Below, in pieces: positions 6,854 through 18,439 of a DNA stretch of 34,494 bases. How positions within the stretch are numbered: position 1 is the stretch's first letter; each line of letters opens with the position of its first letter. The stretch comes from Candidatus Nanoarchaeia archaeon (GTDB lineage: Archaea; Nanobdellota; Nanobdellia; Woesearchaeales; DATDTY01). Under the pieces are notes generated by a model that worked only from the letters and a program-made list of their open reading frames with translations, had not been told where the DNA came from and made no database searches. The stretch covers positions 1 through 34,494 of the forward strand of contig DATDTY010000028.1 in assembly GCA_035290625.1 (NCBI GenBank), given 5' to 3'. A program made the position numbers and the translations under genes.

Positions 6854-7243
6854 ATGAATCCAGAGGATTTTGCATATATTGTTGAAACAGAAAAGAGCTT
6901 TGATGAATCAACTGTTTCAGTTTTGAAAGCAGTTGAGCAGAAAGGTTGGGCTTTGTTTCAGATTTATGATGTAAAAGAGAGGTTAGCGGCAAAGGGGTTT
7001 AAACAAAAGCCATTGAAAATAATTGAGATATGCTCAGGCAAATATGCAAATCAGTTCCTGAATAAGAATAGGTTAATCTCTCTTTGTATGCCTTGCAAAA
7101 TCAATGTGATAGAAGAGAATGGAAAGGTAAAGATTATTGGAATGAAACCGACTATGATATCACAATTTTTCCCAGAAGTTAGCAAAAGAGAAGCTGAGGA
7201 GGTAGAAAGAGAGATTATTGAAATGGTGGATAATGCAAGGTAA
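6854..7243 (+). CDS. DUF302-family protein
   Basis: KSFDE...KGW...YDVKERL..KG....KIIEICSGKYA...LCMPCKINV.E pattern typical of DUF302. Confidence 0.8.
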   Translation: MNPEDFAYIVETEKSFDESTVSVLKAVEQKGWALFQIYDVKERLAAKGFKQKPLKIIEICSGKYANQFLNKNRLISLCMPCKINVIEENGKVKIIGMKPTMISQFFPEVSKREAEEVEREIIEMVDNAR

Positions 7244-7246
7244 AGT

Positions 7247-7573
7247 ATGAAAATAGGGGTAATTTTAAACACAAACGATGCAGAAACCTGCTGGAACTGC
7301 TTCAGATTTTGCAACGAAGCGCTCAAGAATAGCCATGCTGTAAAGATATTTTTGCTTGGTAAAGGCGTTGAAGTTGAGAATGTGAAAGATGACAGATTTC
7401 CTCTTCTTGAAGGTTCAATTAAAAAATTTGTGAAAAACAAAGGCAGCATTCTTGCATGCGGAACGTGCTTGCAGATACGGCAGAAAGAAGAAAGCAGGAT
7501 TTGCCCTGTTTCTACAATGGAAGAAATGTTACAAATAGTTGAAGAGTCTGCTAAGGTTTTGACGTTTGGCTAA
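7247..7573 (+). CDS. DsrE/DsrF-like sulfur-relay protein
   Basis: VKIFLLGKGVE, ILACGTCLQIR, CPVSTMEEM...KVLTFG. Confidence 0.88.
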   Translation: MKIGVILNTNDAETCWNCFRFCNEALKNSHAVKIFLLGKGVEVENVKDDRFPLLEGSIKKFVKNKGSILACGTCLQIRQKEESRICPVSTMEEMLQIVEESAKVLTFG

Positions 7574-7651
7574 CCCTACCTTTTGGGAAGCAGGCTATAT
7601 GCGGCAAAGCCACAGCAACCTTGAAAAGAGGTTCACCGGAGCCCAAACAAC

Positions 7652-7681
7652 CGAAAGATTTATAAGTAAGAAAATTCTTAC
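7652..7681 (+). promoter_or_regulatory. TA operon promoter with palindromic operator
   Basis: CGAAAGA, then TTTATAAG (7659-66), immediately followed by perfect GTAAGAA-AA-TTCTTAC (7666-7681). Confidence 0.7.
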
Positions 7682-7701
7682 AACTGCAAGAGGCATTAAA
7701 A

Positions 7702-7959
7702 ATGATGAAAACGATACGAGTGTCAGAGAAGGGACAGATAGCGATTCCTCAGCCAATGAGAGAGACTTTGGGAATTGAAAAAGGAGACGAATTGGTGGTT
7801 ATACAAATAGAGAATAAGATATTGCTGGAAAAGGCACAGAAGATGGAGCAAAAACTAAAGGATGAGTTTAAGGATATTATCAAGTTTAGCGAGAGGTCTC
7901 TAAAAGAGGTTTGGGATAATAAAAGCGATGATATGTGGAGCCAATATCTAAAGAGGTAA
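7702..7959 (+). CDS. AbrB/MazE-type antitoxin
   Basis: VSEKGQIAIPQPMRETLGIEKGDELV swapped-hairpin motif, acidic C-terminal tail, adjacent to the toxin. Confidence 0.88.
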   Translation: MMKTIRVSEKGQIAIPQPMRETLGIEKGDELVVIQIENKILLEKAQKMEQKLKDEFKDIIKFSERSLKEVWDNKSDDMWSQYLKR

Positions 7960-7960
7960 C

Positions 7961-8296
7961 ATGCACATAAATCAAAAGGAGCTGGTTTTGCTCCCGTATC
8001 CGTTTTCAGATTTGGAAGGAACAAAGGTTAGGCCTGCAATTGTTGTATCAAATAATTCTTTCAATAAAAAATCTGCCGATTGTATCATGGTTCCCTTAAC
8101 AACAGTCATCAAAAACGAGCCTTGTTCTGTGATTATAGATCAGCAAAATATGGCTTCAGGCAGGCTTATGAAGCAGAGCAGAGTAAGGGCGGACAAGATT
8201 TTCGCTGTTGAAAAGAGATTAGTTAGTATGAAGATAGGAACGATCACCGACAAAACCTTTGAGAAAATCAAAGCAGAGATTTTTAGGATGTTTTGA
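7961..8296 (+). CDS. mazF: PemK/MazF-family endoribonuclease toxin
   Basis: ELVLLPYPFSDLEGTKVRPAIVVSN...MVPLTT...SRVRADKIFAV. Confidence 0.9.
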   Translation: MHINQKELVLLPYPFSDLEGTKVRPAIVVSNNSFNKKSADCIMVPLTTVIKNEPCSVIIDQQNMASGRLMKQSRVRADKIFAVEKRLVSMKIGTITDKTFEKIKAEIFRMF

Positions 8297-8352
8297 TGAG
8301 CTGCGTTCTGAAACCGATAAGATATAAATAGTATCTCAAATTGCCATTCTCT

Positions 8353-8889
8353 ATGCTCATCAACGTAGGAACCCAGAACCCTTCAAAGCTCCAGGGGGTG
8401 AAGGAAGCAATTGCTCTTGTCCCTCAGCTCAAGGATGCTGAGATCAAGGCAATAGAGGTTGATTCAGGAGTCCACCACCAGCCCAAAAGCTTTGAGGAGA
8501 TTGTAAAAGGCGCAAAGACAAGGGCAAAGAATGCGTACAAAGACTGCGACCTCAGCATTGGCTTGGAATCAGGCATTGCGCAGATTCCAGGAACGATTAC
8601 TGGATGGATGGACTTCTCCTGCTGTGCGATATTTGACGGGAAACGCTATTTTCTCGGCCTCTCCCAAGCATTTGAGTTTCCGCCTGCTGCCATTAAGAAA
8701 GTTACCACCGAGGATAAAAACATTTCCCAAGCTTTTCGCGAATTAGGGTACACTCAAAAGAGCAATCTGGGCAATGAAGAGGGCGCAATCGGTCTTTTGA
8801 CAAAAGGAAGGGTGATGAGAAAAGATCTGAACAAGGAAGCAGTGCTGAGCGCAATTATCCCATGGGAGAACAAAGAGCTCTACGGGTAA
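8353..8889 (+). CDS. yjjX: Inosine/xanthosine triphosphatase (YjjX family)
   Basis: VGTQNPSK, SGVHHQP, GAKTRAKNA, IGLESG, GAIGLLTKG...R. TATA (GATATAAATA 8321-30) supports the ATG at 8353. Confidence 0.9.
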   Translation: MLINVGTQNPSKLQGVKEAIALVPQLKDAEIKAIEVDSGVHHQPKSFEEIVKGAKTRAKNAYKDCDLSIGLESGIAQIPGTITGWMDFSCCAIFDGKRYFLGLSQAFEFPPAAIKKVTTEDKNISQAFRELGYTQKSNLGNEEGAIGLLTKGRVMRKDLNKEAVLSAIIPWENKELYG

Positions 8890-9375: not shown

Positions 9376-10005
9376 ATGAATTTCATAAAAAGGTTTATTC
9401 AGAAGGTATTCCAGAACATCTTCCGCAAGAAGAAGCATATCAAGCTAGGATTATACGGCCCCCCTAATGGAGGCAAGACAACCTTAGCCAATAGGATCTC
9501 CTTGGACTGGCTTGGAGAAGAGATGGGCTCGACTTCTTCAATAGCGCATGAGACGAGAGAGATCCAGATAAAGGAGAAGATAGACATCAAGAACAAAGGG
9601 AAAGAGCTGTCCTTCAATCTGGTGGATACACCAGGGATTGCGACTAAGATTGACTATGAGGAATTCATGAGGAAAGGGCTCGCAGAGAAGGATGCCAAGA
9701 AGCGTGCGAAAGAGGCCACAAGGGGGGTGATCGAGGCGATTAAATGGCTGGATGACATGGACGCAGTAGTGGTCATCATTGATGCCACCAAAGATCCGTA
9801 TTCCCAGGTTAATGTCACGATTATCGGCAACCTTCAGGCGAGGAACATACCGGTCATGATCGTTGCAAACAAAATAGATTTAAAAAGGTCAAGTATTAAG
9901 AAGATACAGGCAGCGTTCCCCCAGTACTCAGTCGTTGGGATTTCAGCGAAGTACGGGGACCATATGGATACCTTTTATGAGTCATTATTTGCATTAGTGG
10001 GGTAA
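9376..10005 (+). CDS. oapA: Era-like small GTPase OapA/ArvA
   Basis: GPPNGGKTT, HETRE, DTPG, ANKID, ISAK, AKEATRGVIEAIKWLD; first gene of the conserved archaeal triplet. Confidence 0.88.
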   Translation: MNFIKRFIQKVFQNIFRKKKHIKLGLYGPPNGGKTTLANRISLDWLGEEMGSTSSIAHETREIQIKEKIDIKNKGKELSFNLVDTPGIATKIDYEEFMRKGLAEKDAKKRAKEATRGVIEAIKWLDDMDAVVVIIDATKDPYSQVNVTIIGNLQARNIPVMIVANKIDLKRSSIKKIQAAFPQYSVVGISAKYGDHMDTFYESLFALVG

Positions 10006-10009
10006 GGAA

Positions 10010-10390
10010 ATGCTAACCATTCAATTTGTGCCGTATGGAGAAATGGAGCCGCTTCAGCCAGAGCAACGGATAAAAAAGGTTCTGGATGTTGCGAAGCAGG
10101 ACAAGATTGTGCTGCTCGAAGGAAGGTTGGCTAAGGAAGAGGAAGCTAACCTTATCTCCATGACCATGTCAGAGATCAACAACAAGTTCAAAGGCATTGA
10201 GCTGGCAGTGATTAACCCTGAAACCCTTGGCGCAGGCTTTGTCGGAAAGCTGAAGGGAACCATGGCTACGCTGCTTCTTGGCAACCGGGTAGGGTTCACC
10301 ATTATCGGGCCTGCGAGCATCGTGAAAGAGATCAAGAAGAACCCAAATAAGATTGAGATGTATATTAATGACCGCAAGAAGAGGAAATAA
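10010..10390 (+). CDS. oapB: DUF2073 protein OapB/ArvB
   Basis: IVLLEGRL..EEEA.LI..TM.EI...FKGIE...GFTIIGPA; operonic with the GTPase. Confidence 0.85.
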   Translation: MLTIQFVPYGEMEPLQPEQRIKKVLDVAKQDKIVLLEGRLAKEEEANLISMTMSEINNKFKGIELAVINPETLGAGFVGKLKGTMATLLLGNRVGFTIIGPASIVKEIKKNPNKIEMYINDRKKRK

Positions 10391-10392
10391 GC

Positions 10393-10773
10393 ATGCCTCA
10401 CCAATGTGTTAGGTGCAACACATTCTATGAAGACGGCGCTGACCAGATCCTGAAGGGTTGCCCCTGCGGTGCGCGGCTGTTTTTTTTTGTGAAAGCAGCG
10501 AAGCTGGAGGAAGCCAGGAAGAAAGCAGACGCATTGAACCTTACCGAAGATGACAAGCAGCAGATTGAGAGGGATATCCTGGATATTGTTGGGAGCAAGG
10601 TGGATGAAGACGAGCCGGTCTTCCTTGATATCGAGGCAATCAATGTTAAGCAGCCCGGGAAGTACGAGCTTGACTTAGTCCATCTATTCAAGAAGGATCC
10701 TCTCATCTTCAAGCTCGCTGAAGGGAAGTATGTGATTGATCTGGTTGAGAGCTTTGGCAGATTGAGGAAATAA
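10393..10773 (+). CDS. oapC: Zn-ribbon protein OapC/ArvC
   Basis: MPHQCVRC...ILKGCPCG..LF, PGKYELDL..LF, EGKYVIDL. Confidence 0.88.
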   Translation: MPHQCVRCNTFYEDGADQILKGCPCGARLFFFVKAAKLEEARKKADALNLTEDDKQQIERDILDIVGSKVDEDEPVFLDIEAINVKQPGKYELDLVHLFKKDPLIFKLAEGKYVIDLVESFGRLRK

Positions 10774-11825: not shown

Positions 11826-13721
11826 ATGATTTACAAGCCAAACCTCAAGAAGAAGCCTCTGATTAGTTCCAGGCAGTATACAAGGATGTATGATGAGTCC
11901 ATTCGAAACCCTTCGAGGTTCTGGAGAAAAATGGCTTCAGAGATTACATGGAAGAAGAAGTTCTCCGCCTCGTTCAGGAAAACGAGAGACGGAGCAGATT
12001 GGTTTATCGGAGGAAAATTAAACCTCAGCGTCAATTGCTTGGACAGGCATGCTGCAAAAAACCCATGGAAAACAGCATTATTCTGGGAAGGAGAGTTTGG
12101 AGAGCAGCTCAAATACACCTACCAGGAGCTTCTCATTGAAGTATGCAAGCTCGGAAATGTTCTGAAAAAAAGAGGTGTGAAGAAAGGAGATAAGGTATGC
12201 ATCTACATGCCTATGATTCCTGAAGCACTCATTGCAATGCTTGCCTGCGCAAGGATAGGGGCAGTTCATTCTGTCGTTTTTGCAGGCTTCAGCAGCCAGA
12301 GCCTTCGTGAGAGGATCGCAGACTCAAAGAGCAAGGTTGTAATCACAGCAGACGGAGGTTTCAGAAGAGGAAAGATCATTCCCTTGAAGGATATTGCGGA
12401 TAAGGCTGTTCATGGCTTAAGGTTTGTAAAGCATCTCCTTGTCGTTCAGCGTACCAACAGCAAAATTGCTTGGAAGCCGGAAAGGGATCTCTGGTGGGAG
12501 GAGGAGATGAAAGATGCTTCTGCTGTATGCGCTCCAGAATGGATGAGAAGCAATGATCCCCTCTTTATCCTCTACACCTCAGGCTCAACAGGCAAAGCAA
12601 GGGGAATCATGCATCTCAATGGAGGCTATGCAGTCTATGCTACAGCAACATTCAAATACATTTTTGATTACCAGGATGATGTCTACTGGTGCACAGCAGA
12701 TCTTGGATGGATCACAGGCCATACCTATCTTGTGTATGGCCCGCTATTGAACAATGCCACTCTCTTTATGTATGAGGGCGCTCCTGAGTATCCATCTCCG
12801 GATAGATGGTGGCAGCTCATAGAAAAGTATAGGGTGAATACGTTCTATACTTCGCCAACTGGCCTTCGTGCATTGCAGCGCTATGGAGATTCCTGGGTCG
12901 TGAAGCACGATCTCTCTTCCTTGCGGCTTCTAGGGAGCGTAGGCGAGACCATAGGCCCTGAAACCTGGAGATGGTTCTATACAGTTATTGGGAAGAAGAG
13001 ATGCCCTATTGTAGATACCTGGTGGCAGACTGAGACAGGAGGCATCATGATCTCTCCGCTTGCTTGTTTCTCCCTCAAGCCGGGATCTGCCATGAAGCCG
13101 TTTTTTGGAGTTGCTCCATTAATTGTTGACGAAAAAGGCAAGCCTGTAAAGCATGGAGAAAACGGACTCCTCACACTAACAAAGCCTTGGCCTGGCGCAG
13201 GAATAACCCTTGGAAAAGAAGGAGTCCACACCCATGAAAATTACCAGTTGAGCTTTAAGACTTTTTATCTGACTGGAGACCAGGCAAAGCAAGACAGAGA
13301 TGGAGATTACTGGCTGCTTGGCAGGATTGATAATGTGCTCAAGGTGGCCGGCCATCGCATAGGGGCAGCAGAGGTTGAAGCAAGCTTAGCTGCAGACAGC
13401 GCTGTTGCTGAGGCCGCAGTTGTGCCAGTTCCGCACAAAATCAAAGGCTCTGCTATAGCTGCATTTGTTGTGCTGAAGAAGGTCAAGAAAAGTGAAGCTC
13501 TAAAAAGCAGGCTGATTACGAGGGTAGCAGACTCTCTTGGCCATTTTGCAAAGCCAGACTCTGTCATTTTTGTAGATGAATTGCCGAAAAACAGGTCAGG
13601 CAAGATTGTGAGGGAAATCCTCAGGCAGATTGCTGCAGGAGAGAAGCCAGGAACATTTGAGACACTGGTGAATTCAGAGTGTGTAAAGAAGCTGATGCAT
13701 AAGCGCCTACGGATTGGATAA
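11826..13721 (+). CDS. acs: Acetate--CoA ligase (AMP-forming acetyl-CoA synthetase)
   Basis: NCLDRH, YTSGSTGK, ADLGWITGH, VDTWWQTETGG, GHRIG.AEVE, LPKNRSGKIVR. TTTATAAA promoter upstream. Confidence 0.95.
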   Translation: MIYKPNLKKKPLISSRQYTRMYDESIRNPSRFWRKMASEITWKKKFSASFRKTRDGADWFIGGKLNLSVNCLDRHAAKNPWKTALFWEGEFGEQLKYTYQELLIEVCKLGNVLKKRGVKKGDKVCIYMPMIPEALIAMLACARIGAVHSVVFAGFSSQSLRERIADSKSKVVITADGGFRRGKIIPLKDIADKAVHGLRFVKHLLVVQRTNSKIAWKPERDLWWEEEMKDASAVCAPEWMRSNDPLFILYTSGSTGKARGIMHLNGGYAVYATATFKYIFDYQDDVYWCTADLGWITGHTYLVYGPLLNNATLFMYEGAPEYPSPDRWWQLIEKYRVNTFYTSPTGLRALQRYGDSWVVKHDLSSLRLLGSVGETIGPETWRWFYTVIGKKRCPIVDTWWQTETGGIMISPLACFSLKPGSAMKPFFGVAPLIVDEKGKPVKHGENGLLTLTKPWPGAGITLGKEGVHTHENYQLSFKTFYLTGDQAKQDRDGDYWLLGRIDNVLKVAGHRIGAAEVEASLAADSAVAEAAVVPVPHKIKGSAIAAFVVLKKVKKSEALKSRLITRVADSLGHFAKPDSVIFVDELPKNRSGKIVREILRQIAAGEKPGTFETLVNSECVKKLMHKRLRIG

Positions 13722-14147
13722 TCCGTTAATTCTATCATTCCATGCTTCTACCCGAATGGAGTGAGACTCAGGAGCTGAAAGAGCGGCCTCAATGGACGAA
13801 AGCTCGTCAATTTCGTTCCTGAGCAGAGCAGCAAGGTCAGAATCGCTGCAGCTCTGAAGAACTGTCAGCTTATCCTTTTCAGTGTGATAAGGGAACAGGA
13901 TGGCAGCCTGGGCAATAGGGCCTTTCTTGAAAATGGTTACTCCATACCATCTACTTCCATCATCAGTATAAGTGTTGCACATGTGCGCATTGTCATCTGA
14001 TACAGTGAGCGCTGCCGCATGAAGCGCGTCATTATTGATTGAATGTGTTTGATAAAAAGTTCTGAGCTTGAGAATAACAGGAAAGGATGTCGTGTAGGAT
14101 TCATCAACTGGCCCAAGAGAGGGATATTGGACGAGGGTTTGCCCCAT
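13707..14147 (-). CDS. Hypothetical protein
   Basis: Long ORF downstream of tRNA-Pro. Start moved to MGQTLV so it does not run through the tRNA. No family recognised. Confidence 0.5.
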   Translation of the reverse strand: MGQTLVQYPSLGPVDESYTTSFPVILKLRTFYQTHSINNDALHAAALTVSDDNAHMCNTYTDDGSRWYGVTIFKKGPIAQAAILFPYHTEKDKLTVLQSCSDSDLAALLRNEIDELSSIEAALSAPESHSIRVEAWNDRINGLSNP

Positions 14148-14183
14148 AGAACCCAAAGGAGAAACTCCGGATATAAAAAGATA

Positions 14184-14256
14184 TGGGGTTGGGAGGATTC
14201 GAACCCCCATTGCCACCTCCCGAAGGTGGAGTGATACCAAGTTACACTACAACCCC
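14184..14256 (-). tRNA. tRNA-Pro (anticodon CGG), no intron, CCA not encoded
   Basis: GGGGTTG/CAACCCC-A acceptor stem, GTG/CAC D stem, CCACC-TTCGGGA-GGTGG anticodon arm, GGGGG-TTCGAAT-CCTCC T arm; 73 nt. Confidence 0.96.
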
Positions 14257-14771
14257 TTGATTTCGCTGAGCTGCTGCCTCTTTGTCCGGTTATTGAACGG
14301 CCCTACGACGTTTGCAATTACGCAACCATCGATCATATCGTCTTTTTTGGAGATATAGAGCTTCACCATATAAAACTTATCAGGATACCACTCAAAGCTG
14401 TCTGTCGGATTAACAAGCATATTCAATGCATTGTCAGGGGTATTTGCAGGAGCCCAGTTCGTTTCCTCAAGATTAAATCTTGCAAAGGTTGGAGATTCCA
14501 TCAAAGCTGTGAGAGTCTCCTTGGAATTCCATGTCAATGAATACGCTGTTGCTACCTCACATCCTTTCTGAGAGTGATAGGCAAGACCATGAATGCTCTC
14601 AGTTACTTGCGGGTCTTCAAGAAGCATATCAAGGAGTATCCTGCCTGCTTTCTTATGCTGCTTTGGGACTGGCTTGCCGTAAAAAGAAGTGATATAGCTG
14701 TCTTCTGATGAACACGCTGCCAGAGTCAGGAGCAGGAATGCTCTGCGATTGATATACTTTGACCGATCCAT
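14247..14771 (-). CDS. Hypothetical lipoprotein with twin-arginine-like signal
   Basis: N-terminus INRRAFLLLTLAAC (RRxFL plus lipobox LAAC). Own TATA-like box near 14791-14801. Stop codon lies inside the tRNA. Confidence 0.65.
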   Translation of the reverse strand: MDRSKYINRRAFLLLTLAACSSEDSYITSFYGKPVPKQHKKAGRILLDMLLEDPQVTESIHGLAYHSQKGCEVATAYSLTWNSKETLTALMESPTFARFNLEETNWAPANTPDNALNMLVNPTDSFEWYPDKFYMVKLYISKKDDMIDGCVIANVVGPFNNRTKRQQLSEIKGL

Positions 14772-14858
14772 GGAATGATGGATTGTTTTGTTTAATATAA
14801 ATGTATGGCAGGTTAAGCCAAGAACGGCGCCCTAGTGGAAAACTCAGCGCCACTACAA

Positions 14859-16658
14859 TCAAGCGCCACGACGCTCCCTAAGAGCATCCTCCATGATGTG
14901 CTGCTGTACCTTCCATCTGAGATTGTCAATCGCGCCCTCAACAAGGTTAGAGTAAACATGGTATCCAACAGCAATATCCTTATACGAATGCCGTATCTTA
15001 TGCTCATTCAAGCCAAAATGGAGCTTATACCAGTCCTTGTGCTGCTGCAAAGCTCTGACCCCATTCAATGCCTGCTCAAGCTGTTGTTCTGTAAAATGAA
15101 TCCTTCCATCAAACATGATTCCATTCTCCTTGAGGCTAGCCTGGACACGGAGCGTTCCTTTATTGATAGAGGATCGCGGAACATTATAAGAGGCAGCGAG
15201 CTCTGCATAGGTATGCTGTTTTCCGTCAACATACCCGTACTTATGAAAAAACATTTCAAGATAAGGCTGTGTGTTTTGATTTGCCTCCAAGATATGAGAA
15301 AGTTCATTTTTCATATGGAGTCTATACTGAATGTCAAGAGGACGATAATTAGCTTTCGCGCTTATCAGCCTAGAAATCGTTGTTTCAATTTGCCGGATTC
15401 TCTCCCTTGTTACTCCAAACTCATCACCAACCTCCTGCAAAGTGTGGCTGATGCCATCTTGAAGACCATAACGCATGCTAAAGACTGCTTTATCCCGCTC
15501 TGAGACCTGGCGTTTGTGTGTGAAGCGAAGATTGCCCAAAAGAGTTTCCAGCCTCTGCCTTTCTTCAGCATCTATGGCTGCTGCAGCAGGCGACGGAAGT
15601 TTTGTATCAGCGATAATTTCGTGGAAGGTATCATGCTCACCCTCCTTCAACAAATCATCCAAATGCATCGGCTCTTCATGAAAATTAAAATCAGGGCCAG
15701 AAGGAGTCCAGGTCATGTATTTGATATCACTCTTAATCTGGGAGAGCTTATATTGCGGCAATCCAGAGATGATCTGTTCTATGCTTGGCTCCACTCCACT
15801 CTCGTCTATAAACTTTAACACCCATTTTGCAATAGCATGCTGCCGCTCATAGACATGGACAGGAATCCGAATCGTAAACGCTTGATTGACGATTGCTCTC
15901 ATAATCGTCTGGTTGATCCACCATGTGGCGTAGGTGCTGAACTTCAATGGTGCTCCTGTCTCAGGATGGCGCTTCTCGGGGCTGTAATTGAATGCAGCGC
16001 GCTGCAACCCGAAGATTCCTTCCTGAAAAAGATCCATCGGCTCAAGGCTAGGGCAGTTTTTATAATTGGCAAGCACCTTCCCGTAAACAAGCCTAACATT
16101 AGCCTCTATGAGATCATCGATAGCTACTTCATCTCCCTCTCTCACTTGTTTCAGCAAAGCCTGTTCTTCCTCTCGGGTGAGCAGCGGCACTTGGCAAAGA
16201 TAGGTAAGAAAACGCTTCTCATGGCTTGGGCCATCTTCAGGAAAGAAAAGCTTCCGCTCTTTCCTTGCCATTTCAGACCGGAGATCTCTTCTTGGCTTTA
16301 TGCCTCCATTCTTAATCCTATCGGCAACTTTCTGTACGTCTCGAGGCGATAACCAGTAGGAATCTGAATTCGTTTCAGGCCTTATGGCAGCAAGCTCTCC
16401 TGCGAGAATCGCATCGTTGAGTTGTTCATAAGAAAGCCTATTCTTCTCCATTGCCTGAGGAATGGTGATATGCGTGCGATTCATCTTTGAAGAAGGCGCA
16501 AGCCGCTCTGAAGCATAGATAGGCTCATAGCCATACATGCGGAGAAGGGTAGCAACTGACTCTTCAGGAATCCCGGCTATTTCTGCAAGGTTATGAACCG
16601 GCAGATCCCTGTTGATTCGGATCAAATCCGCTGTGCTCAAGGCAATGCTTTCTGCCAT
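14859..16658 (-). CDS. RpoD-like sigma-70 family protein with extra HTH domains
   Basis: Region 1.2 YLCQVPLLTREEEQAL; region 2 LIEANVRLV, DLFQEG..GL, KFSTYATWWINQ; region 3 TIRIPVHVYE; region 4 MRYGLQDG..HTLQEVGDEFGVTRERIRQIE. Start at MAESIA (16658) inferred from TATA spacing. Confidence 0.93.
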   Translation of the reverse strand: MAESIALSTADLIRINRDLPVHNLAEIAGIPEESVATLLRMYGYEPIYASERLAPSSKMNRTHITIPQAMEKNRLSYEQLNDAILAGELAAIRPETNSDSYWLSPRDVQKVADRIKNGGIKPRRDLRSEMARKERKLFFPEDGPSHEKRFLTYLCQVPLLTREEEQALLKQVREGDEVAIDDLIEANVRLVYGKVLANYKNCPSLEPMDLFQEGIFGLQRAAFNYSPEKRHPETGAPLKFSTYATWWINQTIMRAIVNQAFTIRIPVHVYERQHAIAKWVLKFIDESGVEPSIEQIISGLPQYKLSQIKSDIKYMTWTPSGPDFNFHEEPMHLDDLLKEGEHDTFHEIIADTKLPSPAAAAIDAEERQRLETLLGNLRFTHKRQVSERDKAVFSMRYGLQDGISHTLQEVGDEFGVTRERIRQIETTISRLISAKANYRPLDIQYRLHMKNELSHILEANQNTQPYLEMFFHKYGYVDGKQHTYAELAASYNVPRSSINKGTLRVQASLKENGIMFDGRIHFTEQQLEQALNGVRALQQHKDWYKLHFGLNEHKIRHSYKDIAVGYHVYSNLVEGAIDNLRWKVQQHIMEDALRERRGA

Positions 16659-16732
16659 TCGCAGGAAGAGAACCTCTGTCTTATAAAAAGATTTCCGCAA
16701 CCTATAAATAGCCATTTCCCCTCAACCAGCAT
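16659..16732. promoter_or_regulatory. Divergent archaeal promoters for the sigma-like gene and polX
   Basis: Minus strand: CGGAAAT then TTTATAAG (16680-87), 21 nt from the ATG at 16658. Plus strand: TATAAATA (16703-10), 22 nt from the ATG at 16733. Confidence 0.7.
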
Positions 16733-18439
16733 ATGAAGAATCCAGAGATCGCATCCATCTTTTATAAGATGGCTGACTACCTTGAAATAAAAGAAGAGCA
16801 GTTCAAGCCTCAGGCATATCGAAAGGCAGCAATGACGATTGAAGAATTAGATGAGGATATTGCTGAACTAGCAAAGCAGGGAAAGCTTCAGGAGCTTCCG
16901 GGGATTGGAGAGTCGCTTGCAAAGAAGATTGTTGAATATATCGAAACAGGAAAGATCCAGGCATTTGAAAGATTACGAAAGGAGCTGCCAATCGATATTG
17001 AGGCCCTAGAGAAGATAGAGGGCATTGGACCAAAGAAAATCGCTTTTTTGTACAAGAAGTTCAGGGTGAGGAATCCAGAAGATTTGCAGAGGATCATTAA
17101 GAGGGGAAAGTTGAAAGGAGTAAAGGGATTTGGAGAGAAGAGCGAGCAGAGATTTCTTCAGGGAATCCAGTTCAGCCAGAAAAGCAAAGGAAGGGTTTTG
17201 CTCGGGGTTGCACTGCCTGAGGCTGAGGCCATTCAGGAGGTTCTGCGAAAACAGAGAGAAGTAAAGAAGGTTGAGATTGCAGGGTCTTTAGGGAGGAAGA
17301 AAGAGACCATCGGAGATATTGACATTCTTATCCAAAGCTCTGATGTGGAGAAGACCTTTGATTTTATTTCTCAGCTCGAATCTGTCAGAAGGGTTTTGGT
17401 GAAAGGGGAGACAAAAATATCCGTCATCCTGAAATCTGGAATACAGGTTGATGTGAGGAATGTTCCTGCTGCTTCATGGGGCTCTGGTCTGCAGTATTTC
17501 TATGGGTCAAAGGAGCACAGCATCCACCTCAGGCAGATTGCAATCAAGAAAGGGTATAAATTATCTGAGTACGGGCTGTTTAAGGGAAAGAAGATGATAG
17601 CCGGAAAGGACGAGAAAGGGATTTACAAGAGATTGGGCGTTGCATGGATGCCTCCTGAGCTGAGGGAGGATAGGGGGGAGATCGAAGCAGGGCAGAAGAG
17701 AAGCCTTCCTGATCTCGTTTCATTGCAGGACGTTCATGGAGACTTTCAGATGCATACAACATATAGTGATGGTGCTGATTCTGTTAAGCAGATGGCTGAA
17801 GCGTGCAATCGGTTGGGATACCACTTTATGGCAATTTCAGATCATATGGGACTGAAGATTGCAAAAGCAATGGACAAAAAGGCACTGTTGAAGCAGCATG
17901 AGGAGATCAGGCAAGCGCAGAAGAGATCATCAATTAACATATTCAGGGCGGCTGAGGTAGATATTAATGATAAAGGAAAGCTGAATATTGATAAGAGCCT
18001 GTTGGAGCATCTTGATATTGTGGTTGGATCTGTGCATATGGGACTGCAGCAGCCAAAGGAAAAGATTACCCAAAGGTACCTTTCTGCGATAGAGTCTGGA
18101 AACATGCATATCCTGGCGCATCCTACAGGAAGGCTGCTGCTTGAGCGAAAGGGAGCTGATGCTGACTGGAGCGAGGTGTTTAAGGCTGCGAAGAAGAATC
18201 ATGTGGCTTTGGAGATCAATGGCCAGCCGAAGAGGCTTGACCTAAATGACACCATGATCCAGGAAGCAAGGAAATATGGATGTGTCTTTTCGACGAACTC
18301 AGACAGCCATTCGGCGTTGCAGCTTCCTAACATGAGATATGCTGTGTTTACTGCAAGAAGAGGCTGGCTTGAGAAGGAGGATATTGTCAACTGCTGGAGC
18401 TTGAAGAAGGTTGAGAGGTGGATAAAGAGAAAAGAATGA
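16733..18439 (+). CDS. polX: DNA polymerase X with C-terminal PHP domain
   Basis: HhH motifs LPGIGESLA and IEGIGPKK, AGSLGRKKETIGDIDIL, QVDVR, LSEYGLF; PHP motifs MHTTYSDG, ISDH, AHPTGR, EIN, NSDSH. Confidence 0.95.
   Translation: MKNPEIASIFYKMADYLEIKEEQFKPQAYRKAAMTIEELDEDIAELAKQGKLQELPGIGESLAKKIVEYIETGKIQAFERLRKELPIDIEALEKIEGIGPKKIAFLYKKFRVRNPEDLQRIIKRGKLKGVKGFGEKSEQRFLQGIQFSQKSKGRVLLGVALPEAEAIQEVLRKQREVKKVEIAGSLGRKKETIGDIDILIQSSDVEKTFDFISQLESVRRVLVKGETKISVILKSGIQVDVRNVPAASWGSGLQYFYGSKEHSIHLRQIAIKKGYKLSEYGLFKGKKMIAGKDEKGIYKRLGVAWMPPELREDRGEIEAGQKRSLPDLVSLQDVHGDFQMHTTYSDGADSVKQMAEACNRLGYHFMAISDHMGLKIAKAMDKKALLKQHEEIRQAQKRSSINIFRAAEVDINDKGKLNIDKSLLEHLDIVVGSVHMGLQQPKEKITQRYLSAIESGNMHILAHPTGRLLLERKGADADWSEVFKAAKKNHVALEINGQPKRLDLNDTMIQEARKYGCVFSTNSDSHSALQLPNMRYAVFTARRGWLEKEDIVNCWSLKKVERWIKRKE

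Follow-up and report, generated by a model that had tools for sequence, protein, structure and literature searches.

The sigma-70-like gene on the minus strand of contig C28 of Candidatus Nanoarchaeia archaeon (order Woesearchaeales; the contig, 34,494 nucleotides long, is referred to here as the window) is native to this Woesearchaeota-type (DPANN) archaeon, is under purifying selection, and encodes a sigma core flanked on both sides by additional modules. Transcription initiation in Archaea is taught as a process driven by TBP and TFB, never by a sigma factor, and a sigma family that selection has preserved throughout an entire class of archaea constitutes an unexplained exception to this rule, which has been on record since 2021. 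In the passage devoted to such genes, Castelle et al. (2021, Front Microbiol 12:660052, PMC8204110) report that sigma-70 genes (fam00359) occur in DPANN and are "particularly prevalent in Woesearchaeota", that mis-binning was excluded, that anti-sigma factors were not found, and that the mechanism of control is unclear. The occurrence of sigma-70 genes in Woesearchaeota is thus already published, and the phenomenon is not new. New here are the domain architecture and the evolutionary pattern of the subfamily, which are undescribed as far as our literature searches reach; the open-access literature searched yielded no functional study of an archaeal sigma factor and no account of tandem sigma-4 modules.

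Genomic context and native origin of the gene

The genome is a metagenome bin of 1.37 Mb in 84 contigs, rated 100% complete and 1.14% contaminated. According to Pfam, the gene shares its contig with archaeal genes (OapB, OapC, TrmB, HerA, Spt5-NGN, L11, the D-aminoacyl-tRNA deacylase DtdA, and FtsZ). The sole genes for a multisubunit RNA polymerase (RNAP) form an archaeal operon on contig C40 (split Rpo2, Rpo1N and Rpo1C, followed by NusA-like, S12 and S7), and the nearest named relatives of Rpo1N, at 72-78% identity, are labelled "Candidatus Woesearchaeota archaeon" and "Nanoarchaeota archaeon". The profile search agrees with the expectation of the initial annotation that bacterial rpoB and rpoC are absent: in the whole genome neither model exceeds its cut-off (801 and 963 bits, respectively), the best scores of 178 and 276 bits falling in the C40 operon, and the same models exceed their cut-offs in 10 of 10 bacterial control genomes. 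General transcription factors are represented by one TBP gene, one TFB gene and two TFE-like genes. The GC content is even across the sigma region of the window; the codon-usage distance of the sigma gene to the genome mean lies at the 16th percentile of 628 long open reading frames (ORFs), and its GC content at third codon positions (0.474) is within the interquartile range of the same set (0.461-0.570).

The stretch is present in 20 listed sequencing runs from 11 studies, all of them DNA metagenomes, labelled as groundwater and soil; 16 runs contain at least half of it. In four runs of four studies, none of them marked as a possible source, the region is covered by short contigs of low depth; the junction between the sigma gene and polX is bridged by contigs X6 (16490-17657) and X7 (16500-16831), and the junction with the downstream ORF by contigs X7 (14207-14999) and X8 (14216-15083). 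No joint or rearrangement was reported and there is no sign of a chimera, contigs being a weaker proof than read pairs. At the contig level, continuity across the gene is therefore confirmed in independently sequenced samples. The scan of metagenomes also returned one contig identical over 13,854 bases, which is probably the same assembly and was not counted as independent.

Because the gene lies among archaeal neighbours in a genome whose only RNAP is archaeal, has typical codon usage and a standard TATA box (see below), and is joined to its flanks on both sides in independent samples, we conclude that it is native. The earlier view of the gene as domesticated rather than a contaminant is thereby upheld, with the TBP, TFB and TFE genes and purifying selection as additional arguments. 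A break in composition and a near-identical bacterial homolog, named at the outset as signs that would speak against this view, were both looked for: the GC profile is flat and the nearest bacterial proteins are only ~38% identical. It is barely conceivable that a bacterial gene was wrongly joined to archaeal DNA in assembly or binning: the genome is indeed a bin of 84 contigs, and the sigma-like gene L014, which belongs to a different genome of the order whose bin is 6% contaminated, groups within RpoD of bacteria of the Candidate Phyla Radiation (CPR), but several of the contigs from the four studies bridge both junctions, GC content, codon usage and promoter are those of the archaeon, and the nearest bacterial proteins resemble the core alone.

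In three runs the summed contig depth at 15832-16055, in sigma region 2, reaches 46x, 19x and 15x against ~5x in the flanks. Those samples must therefore contain more abundant sequences that are at least 95% alike over part of the stretch; in the window's own genome the best other match to these bases, on contig C70, is 71% identical.

Start codon and promoter

The ORF from the first ATG spans 14859..16715 of the minus strand (618 residues). The gene likely starts at the second ATG (M20, base 16658), and the first in-frame ATG, at 16715, is probably unused, because the relative on C70 has Leu where the first ATG would fall, because phmmer pairs residue 2 of the C70 product (P0003) with residue 21 of the query, and because a TATA box at the genome-typical distance is found upstream of M20 only and not of the first ATG. 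Residues of Pfam and phmmer matches are counted below from the first ATG unless stated to be "from M20".

The typical distance was obtained from a survey of starts of TATA-like hexamers at positions -80 to -6 upstream of 800 ORFs of at least 200 residues. They fall at -31, -30, -29 and -28 in 58, 149, 111 and 92 cases, respectively (410 of 800), and in no more than 20 cases at any other position; such a peak near -30 is the signature of leaderless archaeal genes. The survey bears out the earlier remark that the spacing between TATA box and ATG of the sigma gene resembles that of its archaeal neighbours. The relative on C70 has the identical box, TTTTTATAAG, at the identical distance, and the genome-wide pattern also fits polX, ORF174 (the 174-residue ORF just downstream of the sigma gene) and four of the five other sigma-like genes of the genome (those on C70 and C33 and both on C31); the copy on C9 does not fit it at its first ATG. 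The 74-bp divergent spacer which the gene had been said to share with polX corresponds to 16659-16732 when M20 is the start, and the pairing of sigma gene and polX recurs on C70.

The sigma-like gene without the usual TATA box (L005, C9 4591-6716) has a 14-base direct repeat, ataggtaatcaaca, present twice directly before its first ATG. A 177-residue ORF downstream of it has a partial-length match to the PADLOC family mad2 (E 8e-8).

Domain architecture of the protein

The core of the protein is that of a bacterial sigma factor. In Pfam, Sigma70_r4 (PF04545) matches residues 404-445 with 55.9 bits (cut-off 24.1) and Sigma70_r2 (PF04542) residues 202-278 with 32.9 bits (cut-off 24), while the NCBIfam model of the sigma-70 superfamily, TIGR02937, scores 74.2 bits against a cut-off of 42.9; with sigma-2 and sigma-4 domains both above curated thresholds, the protein is a member of the superfamily. 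The profiles for the two other regions gave less: Sigma70_r1_2 (PF00140) remains just below its cut-off at residues 175-196 (20.2 against 22 bits), and region 3 (PF04539) has no Pfam match; the phmmer alignment and the Foldseek alignments of the AlphaFold2 (AF2) model extend across the two regions. Residues 167-451 form a single phmmer alignment with residues 122-376 of Clostridioides difficile SigA in the PDB (7l7b_F, E 6e-38), and SigA from Thermus is aligned as well (E about 1e-36 to 1e-37). Judging from this continuous alignment, regions 1.2, 2, 3 and 4 appear to be all there and in order, as initially described. The AF2 model (144 sequences, mean pLDDT 85.4) matches sigma chains in holoenzyme structures with E-values from 6e-16 to 9e-12 among the first 50 Foldseek matches.

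The motifs FSTYATWW, the Gln of region 2.4 (Q269), IPVHVYE and VTRERIRQIE can be read directly in the protein, as can the substitution NQTIM and the altered helix following RQIE, all of which had been pointed out before; the insertion ahead of region 2.3 is there too, comprises 7 residues, and is conserved as NPxTG in close relatives. The initial designation as a "complete primary sigma" is correct with respect to the end-to-end alignment of regions 1.2-4.2, but not otherwise: Pfam finds no region 1.1 (PF03979), which is present in most of the bacterial homologs listed, and the scores for all RpoD/SigA/RpoS equivalogs in NCBIfam are far below their cut-offs (TIGR02393, the best, 166 against 354; NF006666, 163.8 against 572; NF004208, 159.9 against 555).

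Compared with bacterial sigma factors of groups 1 and 2 (RpoD/SigA/RpoS; 7l7b_F, 4xln_F), the protein thus has in common the continuous alignment, the predicted fold, the -10 melting aromatic residues, the H/E pair of the extended -10 element and the R-E-R-x-R-Q set of the -35 helix, and it retains 61 of 81 conserved residues (see below). It differs in the lack of region 1.1, in insertions within regions 2 and 3, in the equivalog scores, in the replaced RKLRHP end of region 4.2, in its archaeal promoter, and in residing in a genome without a bacterial core RNAP.

Table 1. Location of the sigma-70-like gene, its predicted parts and adjacent elements in the window
Feature	Coordinates	Strand	Remarks
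Sigma-70-like gene	14859..16658	minus	599 residues from M20, and stop codon
N-terminal module 1, three-helix HTH-like bundle (predicted)	16527..16658	minus	Residues 1-44 from M20; AF2
N-terminal module 2, MerR/excisionase-type winged HTH (predicted)	16299..16481	minus	Residues 60-120 from M20; AF2
Sigma regions 1.2 to 2.4	15840..16220	minus	Residues 166-292 from the first ATG; FSTYATWW and group-specific NPxTG-type insertion
Sigma region 3 (3.0 with IPVHVYE, 3.1, 3.2)	15561..15839	minus	Divergent, 12-residue insertion, Pfam-negative
Sigma region 4 (4.1, 4.2) with VTRERIRQIE	15351..15560	minus	Pfam, phmmer
Extra sigma-4-like module rep2	15114..15305	minus	Smith-Waterman, hhalign, weak Pfam match, atlas neighbours
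Second extra sigma-4-like module rep3 (probable)	14862..15071	minus	hhalign, Smith-Waterman, AF2
TATA-like box TTTTTATAAG of the sigma gene	16680..16689	minus	-31..-22 from the M20 ATG
TATA-like box CCTATAAATA of polX	16701..16710	plus	-32..-23 from the ATG at 16733
PolX (DNA polymerase/3'-5' exonuclease), divergent neighbour	16733..18439	plus	NF006375, 488.8 bits (cut-off 426)

The place of region 1.1 is taken by ~145 residues that are conserved in six sequences, with a linker NGG..R...RSE among the invariant positions. Modelled alone with AF2, this part reached pLDDT 70 and is predicted to form two small helix-turn-helix (HTH) modules. Module 1 resembles the DNA-binding domain of GcrA (VIA-align Z 6.8, root-mean-square deviation (rmsd) 1.6 A, 44 residues) and the HTH of the Tc3 transposase (Z 6.4). 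Module 2, which is followed by the conserved basic linker NGGIKxRRxLRSE, shares its predicted fold with the MerR/excisionase-type winged HTH (wHTH) domains of CvkR (7xn2), SoxR (2zhh) and the excisionase Xis of Pukovnik (4j2n) at Z 6.5-7.5 and rmsd 1.6-2.5 A over 50-60 residues (VIA-align Z 7.5, 6.7 and 6.7, respectively), and Xis is also its top Foldseek match (TMt 0.72, rmsd 1.6 A over 50 columns, E 0.064). Z-scores below 8 are common for small helical folds, and these similarities provide a lead at the level of the fold, not an assignment to a family. Unlike those proteins, module 2 is fused to a sigma core, and Pfam found no family in the N-terminal 146 residues (20-165) at E up to 10. A search of PHROGs with both extensions and the two downstream ORFs gave no match.

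On the other side, ~165 residues extend beyond region 4. Their first part forms a module (rep2) which is a clear duplicate of the sigma-4 domain: aligned to region 4 by Smith-Waterman it scores 54 (z 8.6, equalled by none of 500 shuffles), hhalign places 44 columns in register with a probability of 92% (P 5.7e-7), Pfam gives a weak Sigma70_r4 match (E 0.092), and its neighbours in the atlas partly carry Sigma70_r4. A second module (rep3) is probably a further copy, with weaker evidence; hhalign aligns 37 columns of it in register with region 4 (probability 34%, P 4.3e-4), Smith-Waterman gives z 3.5 against rep2 (3 of 500 shuffles) and z 1.7 against region 4 (37 of 500), and in the AF2 model its helices are laid out as in sigma-4. 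The C-terminal modules are later additions, since in the relative P0004 the N-terminal modules are combined with a sigma C-terminus of canonical form. Altogether the protein has five or six HTH-type modules, and the extra DNA-binding modules suggest that it binds DNA autonomously.

A database protein of 312 residues (P0121) consists of regions 3-4 of a bacterial-type rpoD joined, inside VTRERIRQIE, to the exact C-terminal extension of the sigma gene. It looks like an assembly chimera.

Paralogues, subfamily and distribution

The genome has six sigma-like loci. Three of them encode the long form, namely C28, C33 (609 residues) and C70, which is truncated at the end of its contig; the remaining three, a tandem pair on C31 and a single copy on C9, encode shorter and more canonical proteins. 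Contig C70 (2335 bases) is collinear with 15221-17479 of the window, including the start of polX, at 74.6% nucleotide identity; it may represent another locus of the genome or a piece of a related population that was binned along with it. A search of 5.8 billion clustered proteins gave only three close relatives, namely P0002 (53% identity, 594 residues), in which the C70 type is seen at full length, P0003, which is the product of C70, and P0004 (42% identity); the next matches are bacterial RpoD proteins with ~38% identity, restricted to the core. An exhaustive search of representatives added P0122 and P0125, the latter a fragment whose sequence equals the beginning of the C33 copy. As judged from these searches, the subfamily is found only in this genome (three copies with C70) and in the metagenome proteins P0002, P0004 and P0122.

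The N- and C-terminal extensions occur in no genome of another family of the order; the window's genome is the only member of its own family among the genomes compared, and C70 is the sole copy that gives a comparable context. A scan of the genome collection with the sigma protein yielded no relative, and with the N-terminal alignment only a 31-residue wHTH match in a metagenome-assembled genome of Saprospiraceae, which is not a family member. The sigma query pattern had no match among the viral contigs of IMG/VR.

Sigma-like proteins in the broader sense are widespread in the group. Matches to the C28 protein were found in 35 of the 101 genomes of the order (the window's own counted), one of them a single-contig genome. 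PF04542 exceeds its cut-off in 124 of the 301 genomes of the phylum, one of which (G296) is flagged as unpublished, and all 124 are labelled as the same order or the same class; as controls, the model found its target in 10 of 10 bacterial and in none of four archaeal genomes. Sigma-like genes are also often arranged in tandem, two on C31 (12297-15090) and three in a row in several genomes of the order (G039:C3 17307-20253, G215:C6, G072:C8).

In a tree of 80 sequences, in which 36 are unlabelled representatives and the named bacteria are best matches only (Bacillota, CPR), the subfamily is a clade with SH-aLRT 99 on a long stem. The backbone is poorly supported: after a quick search, 43 of 77 inner branches lack support, many branches are long, and the archaeal sequences are scattered. 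The tree accordingly favours neither one nor several acquisitions, and no particular donor. The proposal to look for an archaeal clade thus found its answer for the subfamily of the gene, and not for the archaeal sequences overall. L014 (G014:C67) sits on a short branch within RpoD of CPR bacteria (Patescibacteria/Parcubacteria); it may lie on a bacterial contig that strayed into the bin or have been transferred recently.

With regard to the DPANN genes of fam00359 as described in the passage of Castelle et al. (2021, PMC8204110), the present case agrees in its general features: a sigma-70-class protein is encoded among archaeal genes on a contig of a Woesearchaeota-type genome with archaeal markers, is not mis-binned, and coexists with TBP, TFB and TFE, with no anti-sigma factor evident. 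The difference lies in the two N-terminal HTH modules and the one or two extra sigma-4 modules found here; the published passage gives no architectures.

Selection and conserved surfaces

The evolution of the gene was assessed by comparing C28 with C70 over 503 codons by the Nei-Gojobori method. For the whole sigma gene dN is 0.335 and dS 1.06; the values by segment are 0.38 and 0.90 for the N-terminal modules, 0.20 and 1.89 for regions 1.2-2.4, 0.27 and 0.62 for region 3, 0.41 and 1.31 for region 4, and 0.55 and 1.06 for the C-terminal part, against 0.053 and 0.47 for polX (249 codons). The sigma gene thus evolves ~6 times faster than polX at replacement sites, yet it does not evolve neutrally: dN/dS is roughly 0.3 over the gene and 0.1 in region 2, and the gene is under purifying selection, strongest in region 2. 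The same disparity is seen in amino acid identity (55% for sigma, 90% for polX) and in nucleotide identity in 120-base windows (53-77% and 73-97%, respectively).

We then considered the 81 alignment columns that are at least 85% conserved in 137 other sigma sequences, 61 of which are kept by the protein. Conservation is high in regions 2.3 (10/11), 2.4 (4/4), 3.0 (7/7) and 4.2 (13/16) and lower in regions 2.1 (9/14) and 2.2 (8/13), so that the DNA-contact regions retain 34 of 38 columns and regions 2.1-2.2 only 17 of 27 (Fisher p = 0.015; the region borders are approximate and our own, and this one test was made after the data had been viewed). The replaced positions of regions 2.1-2.2 are mostly common to the subfamily, with Y, K, K and A for V, S, A and K and a residue other than Asn in QEGN, and the D, Q and E of the region 2.2 motif DLxQEG are retained. 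To judge from the alignment, regions 2.1-2.2 look like a changed but constrained surface.

The paralogues vary at the residues that read the -35 and -10 elements. The C33 copy, which keeps 43 of the 81 columns, has VPEARVIKL and IPRKIYG; neither the R-E-R-Q set for -35 nor the H/E pair of region 3.0 is left in it. In P0002 the sequence is VSKQRVHQV.

Proposed role and alternative explanations

We propose, giving the idea about an even chance, that the protein would be a sequence-specific, multi-HTH DNA-binding regulator, accessory to transcription beside TBP and TFB, and that its paralogues would have different targets. The gene would descend from a bacterial group-1-like sigma-70 factor and give rise to a leaderless mRNA under the control of an archaeal TATA promoter of the ordinary kind. 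It is retained by selection and belongs to a small, fast-evolving, lineage-restricted subfamily, in which two small HTH-type modules stand in place of region 1.1 and one clear and one probable copy of sigma-4 are appended, with almost all residues by which a bacterial sigma contacts the -10, extended -10 and -35 elements left in place. The protein would act inside the archaeon, alongside the single TBP and single TFB and not instead of them, and paralogues with differing DNA-reading residues would read different targets.

Several points weigh against this proposal. The retained D, Q and E of region 2.2 fit poorly with a purely RNAP-independent role and hint at a polymerase-type partner, and the three shorter paralogues (two on C31, one on C9) have a fully canonical DLIQEGN. 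The contrast between the surfaces depends on the assignment of sigma positions to DNA or beta-prime contact in E. coli and Thermus. Since dS between C28 and C70 is near saturation, the dN/dS ratios are rough, and C70 may be either the ortholog from a co-binned relative or a paralogue.

The same features of region 2 bear on an unlikely alternative, namely that the protein is an alternative initiation factor, whose sigma-2 domain docks on the clamp coiled-coil of Rpo1N as bacterial sigma does on the beta-prime clamp helices, and which would aid the recognition or melting of some promoters in a hybrid bacterial/archaeal mode of initiation. Retention of D, Q and E in region 2.2 and of all melting aromatic residues in region 2.3 would fit this explanation, as would the strongest constraint being in region 2 (dN 0.20), the subfamily-wide changes in regions 2.1-2.2 as a possible re-fitting to a new partner surface, the ratio of one TBP and one TFB to five or six sigma-like genes, and the persistence of the sigma family across the class. 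On the other hand, archaeal RNAP is not known to work with a sigma factor; the genome-wide TATA boxes near -30 indicate ordinary TBP/TFB promoters, the conserved surface of regions 2.1-2.2 is altered at 10 of 27 positions, and the arginine of beta-prime most critical for binding of sigma-70 is not conserved in the archaeal coiled-coil. Co-folding of sigma residues 140-290 (from M20) with Rpo1N 1-430 scored 0.00 in both runs (mark 0.32) and, having been run without controls, weighs neither way. Should the sigma-derived proteins of Woesearchaeota indeed dock on the archaeal clamp through re-fitted regions 2.1-2.2 and direct or aid the opening of a promoter set of their own, with the extra HTH modules of the subfamily reading additional upstream DNA, which we regard as a long shot, initiation of the bacterial and the archaeal type would take place on one polymerase in one cell.

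It is quite improbable that the gene is a decaying relic of horizontal transfer with no present function. Its divergence is indeed very fast (55% amino acid identity against 90% for polX), and the C33 paralogue has kept just 43 of the 81 invariant residues; but the frame of 599 codons is intact and the relatives have frames of similar length, the dN/dS values and the 61 retained residues speak of constraint, the promoter is common to C28 and C70, and the added domains are conserved in six sequences.

Fast evolution relative to a neighbouring gene is also typical of conflict genes, and together with the canonical sigma surfaces that are kept and the tandem sigma arrays of related genomes it might suggest an effector or decoy that, once delivered or released, hijacks or jams the RNAP of a bacterial neighbour or host, in the manner of phage sigma factors. 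We consider this highly improbable, as neither the translation nor Pfam shows a signal peptide or a secretion-associated domain, no delivery system is encoded beside the gene according to Pfam, and there are five or six paralogues of cytoplasmic type with archaeal promoters. Moreover, the hosts of known DPANN are archaea ("known episymbionts of other archaea" in the abstract of PMC8204110).

Just as little speaks for a component of a defence system or mobile element comparable to MzaA of the anti-phage system MZA (NF041931; PADLOC PDLC02203). MzaA, the sole PADLOC match (E 7e-43 in NCBIfam), is likewise a long protein with the sigma-70 core in its C-terminal part, after a non-sigma N-terminal region; the gene evolves fast, and at a distance of 600 bp there is a tRNA-Pro gene past which the DNA varies between strains. 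The match is confined to the shared sigma core (profile positions 430-653 of 683; 147.4 bits against a cut-off of 800), no MZA components were found in the two downstream ORFs scanned, and apart from the partial mad2 match on C9 the neighbouring ORFs scanned (two here, one beside the C9 copy) belong to no PADLOC family. Furthermore, IMG/VR contains no relative recognised by the sigma query, and the variable DNA lies beyond the tRNA as seen from the sigma gene.

For functional tests, this copy offers three advantages: its subfamily has kept the residues that contact DNA but exchanged part of the face presumed to contact the polymerase, its extra modules suggest DNA binding of an autonomous kind, and C28 and C70 provide a syntenic allele pair with fast but constrained evolution.

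Other features of the window

ORF174 (14247-14771, minus), the next ORF downstream of the sigma gene, carries at its N-terminus a twin-arginine/lipobox-like stretch, RRAFLLLTLAAC, and has its own TATA box at the usual distance; searches of Pfam, NCBIfam, PADLOC and PHROGs returned nothing for it. It overlaps a gene for tRNA-Pro(CGG) at 14184-14256 (minus, ARAGORN), the stop codon of the ORF lying on the 5' end of the tRNA gene. A mechanically called 177-residue ORF with a TTG start (13707-14240) runs into the tRNA; a shorter ORF from the ATG at 14146, with its own TATA box TTTTTATAT ~24 nt upstream, is more likely to be the gene. Contigs X7 and X11, from two independent runs, diverge from the window precisely where tRNA-Pro has its 3' end, at 14182, which means that the DNA past this tRNA differs between populations.

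Farther along the contig, a GTPase gene followed by OapB and OapC (9376-10773) suggests that a replication origin may be nearby; the ORF-poor stretch of lower GC content at 7200-8400 contains no origin-like direct or inverted repeats of at least 14 bases. In the acetyl-CoA synthetase gene (11826-13721), contigs X6, X7 and X8 match the window only to the right of ~13000 (12999-13001) and continue leftward with other sequence, and contig X11 breaks inside the same gene at 13482. These breaks could reflect a structural variant or a related organism that shares part of the gene.

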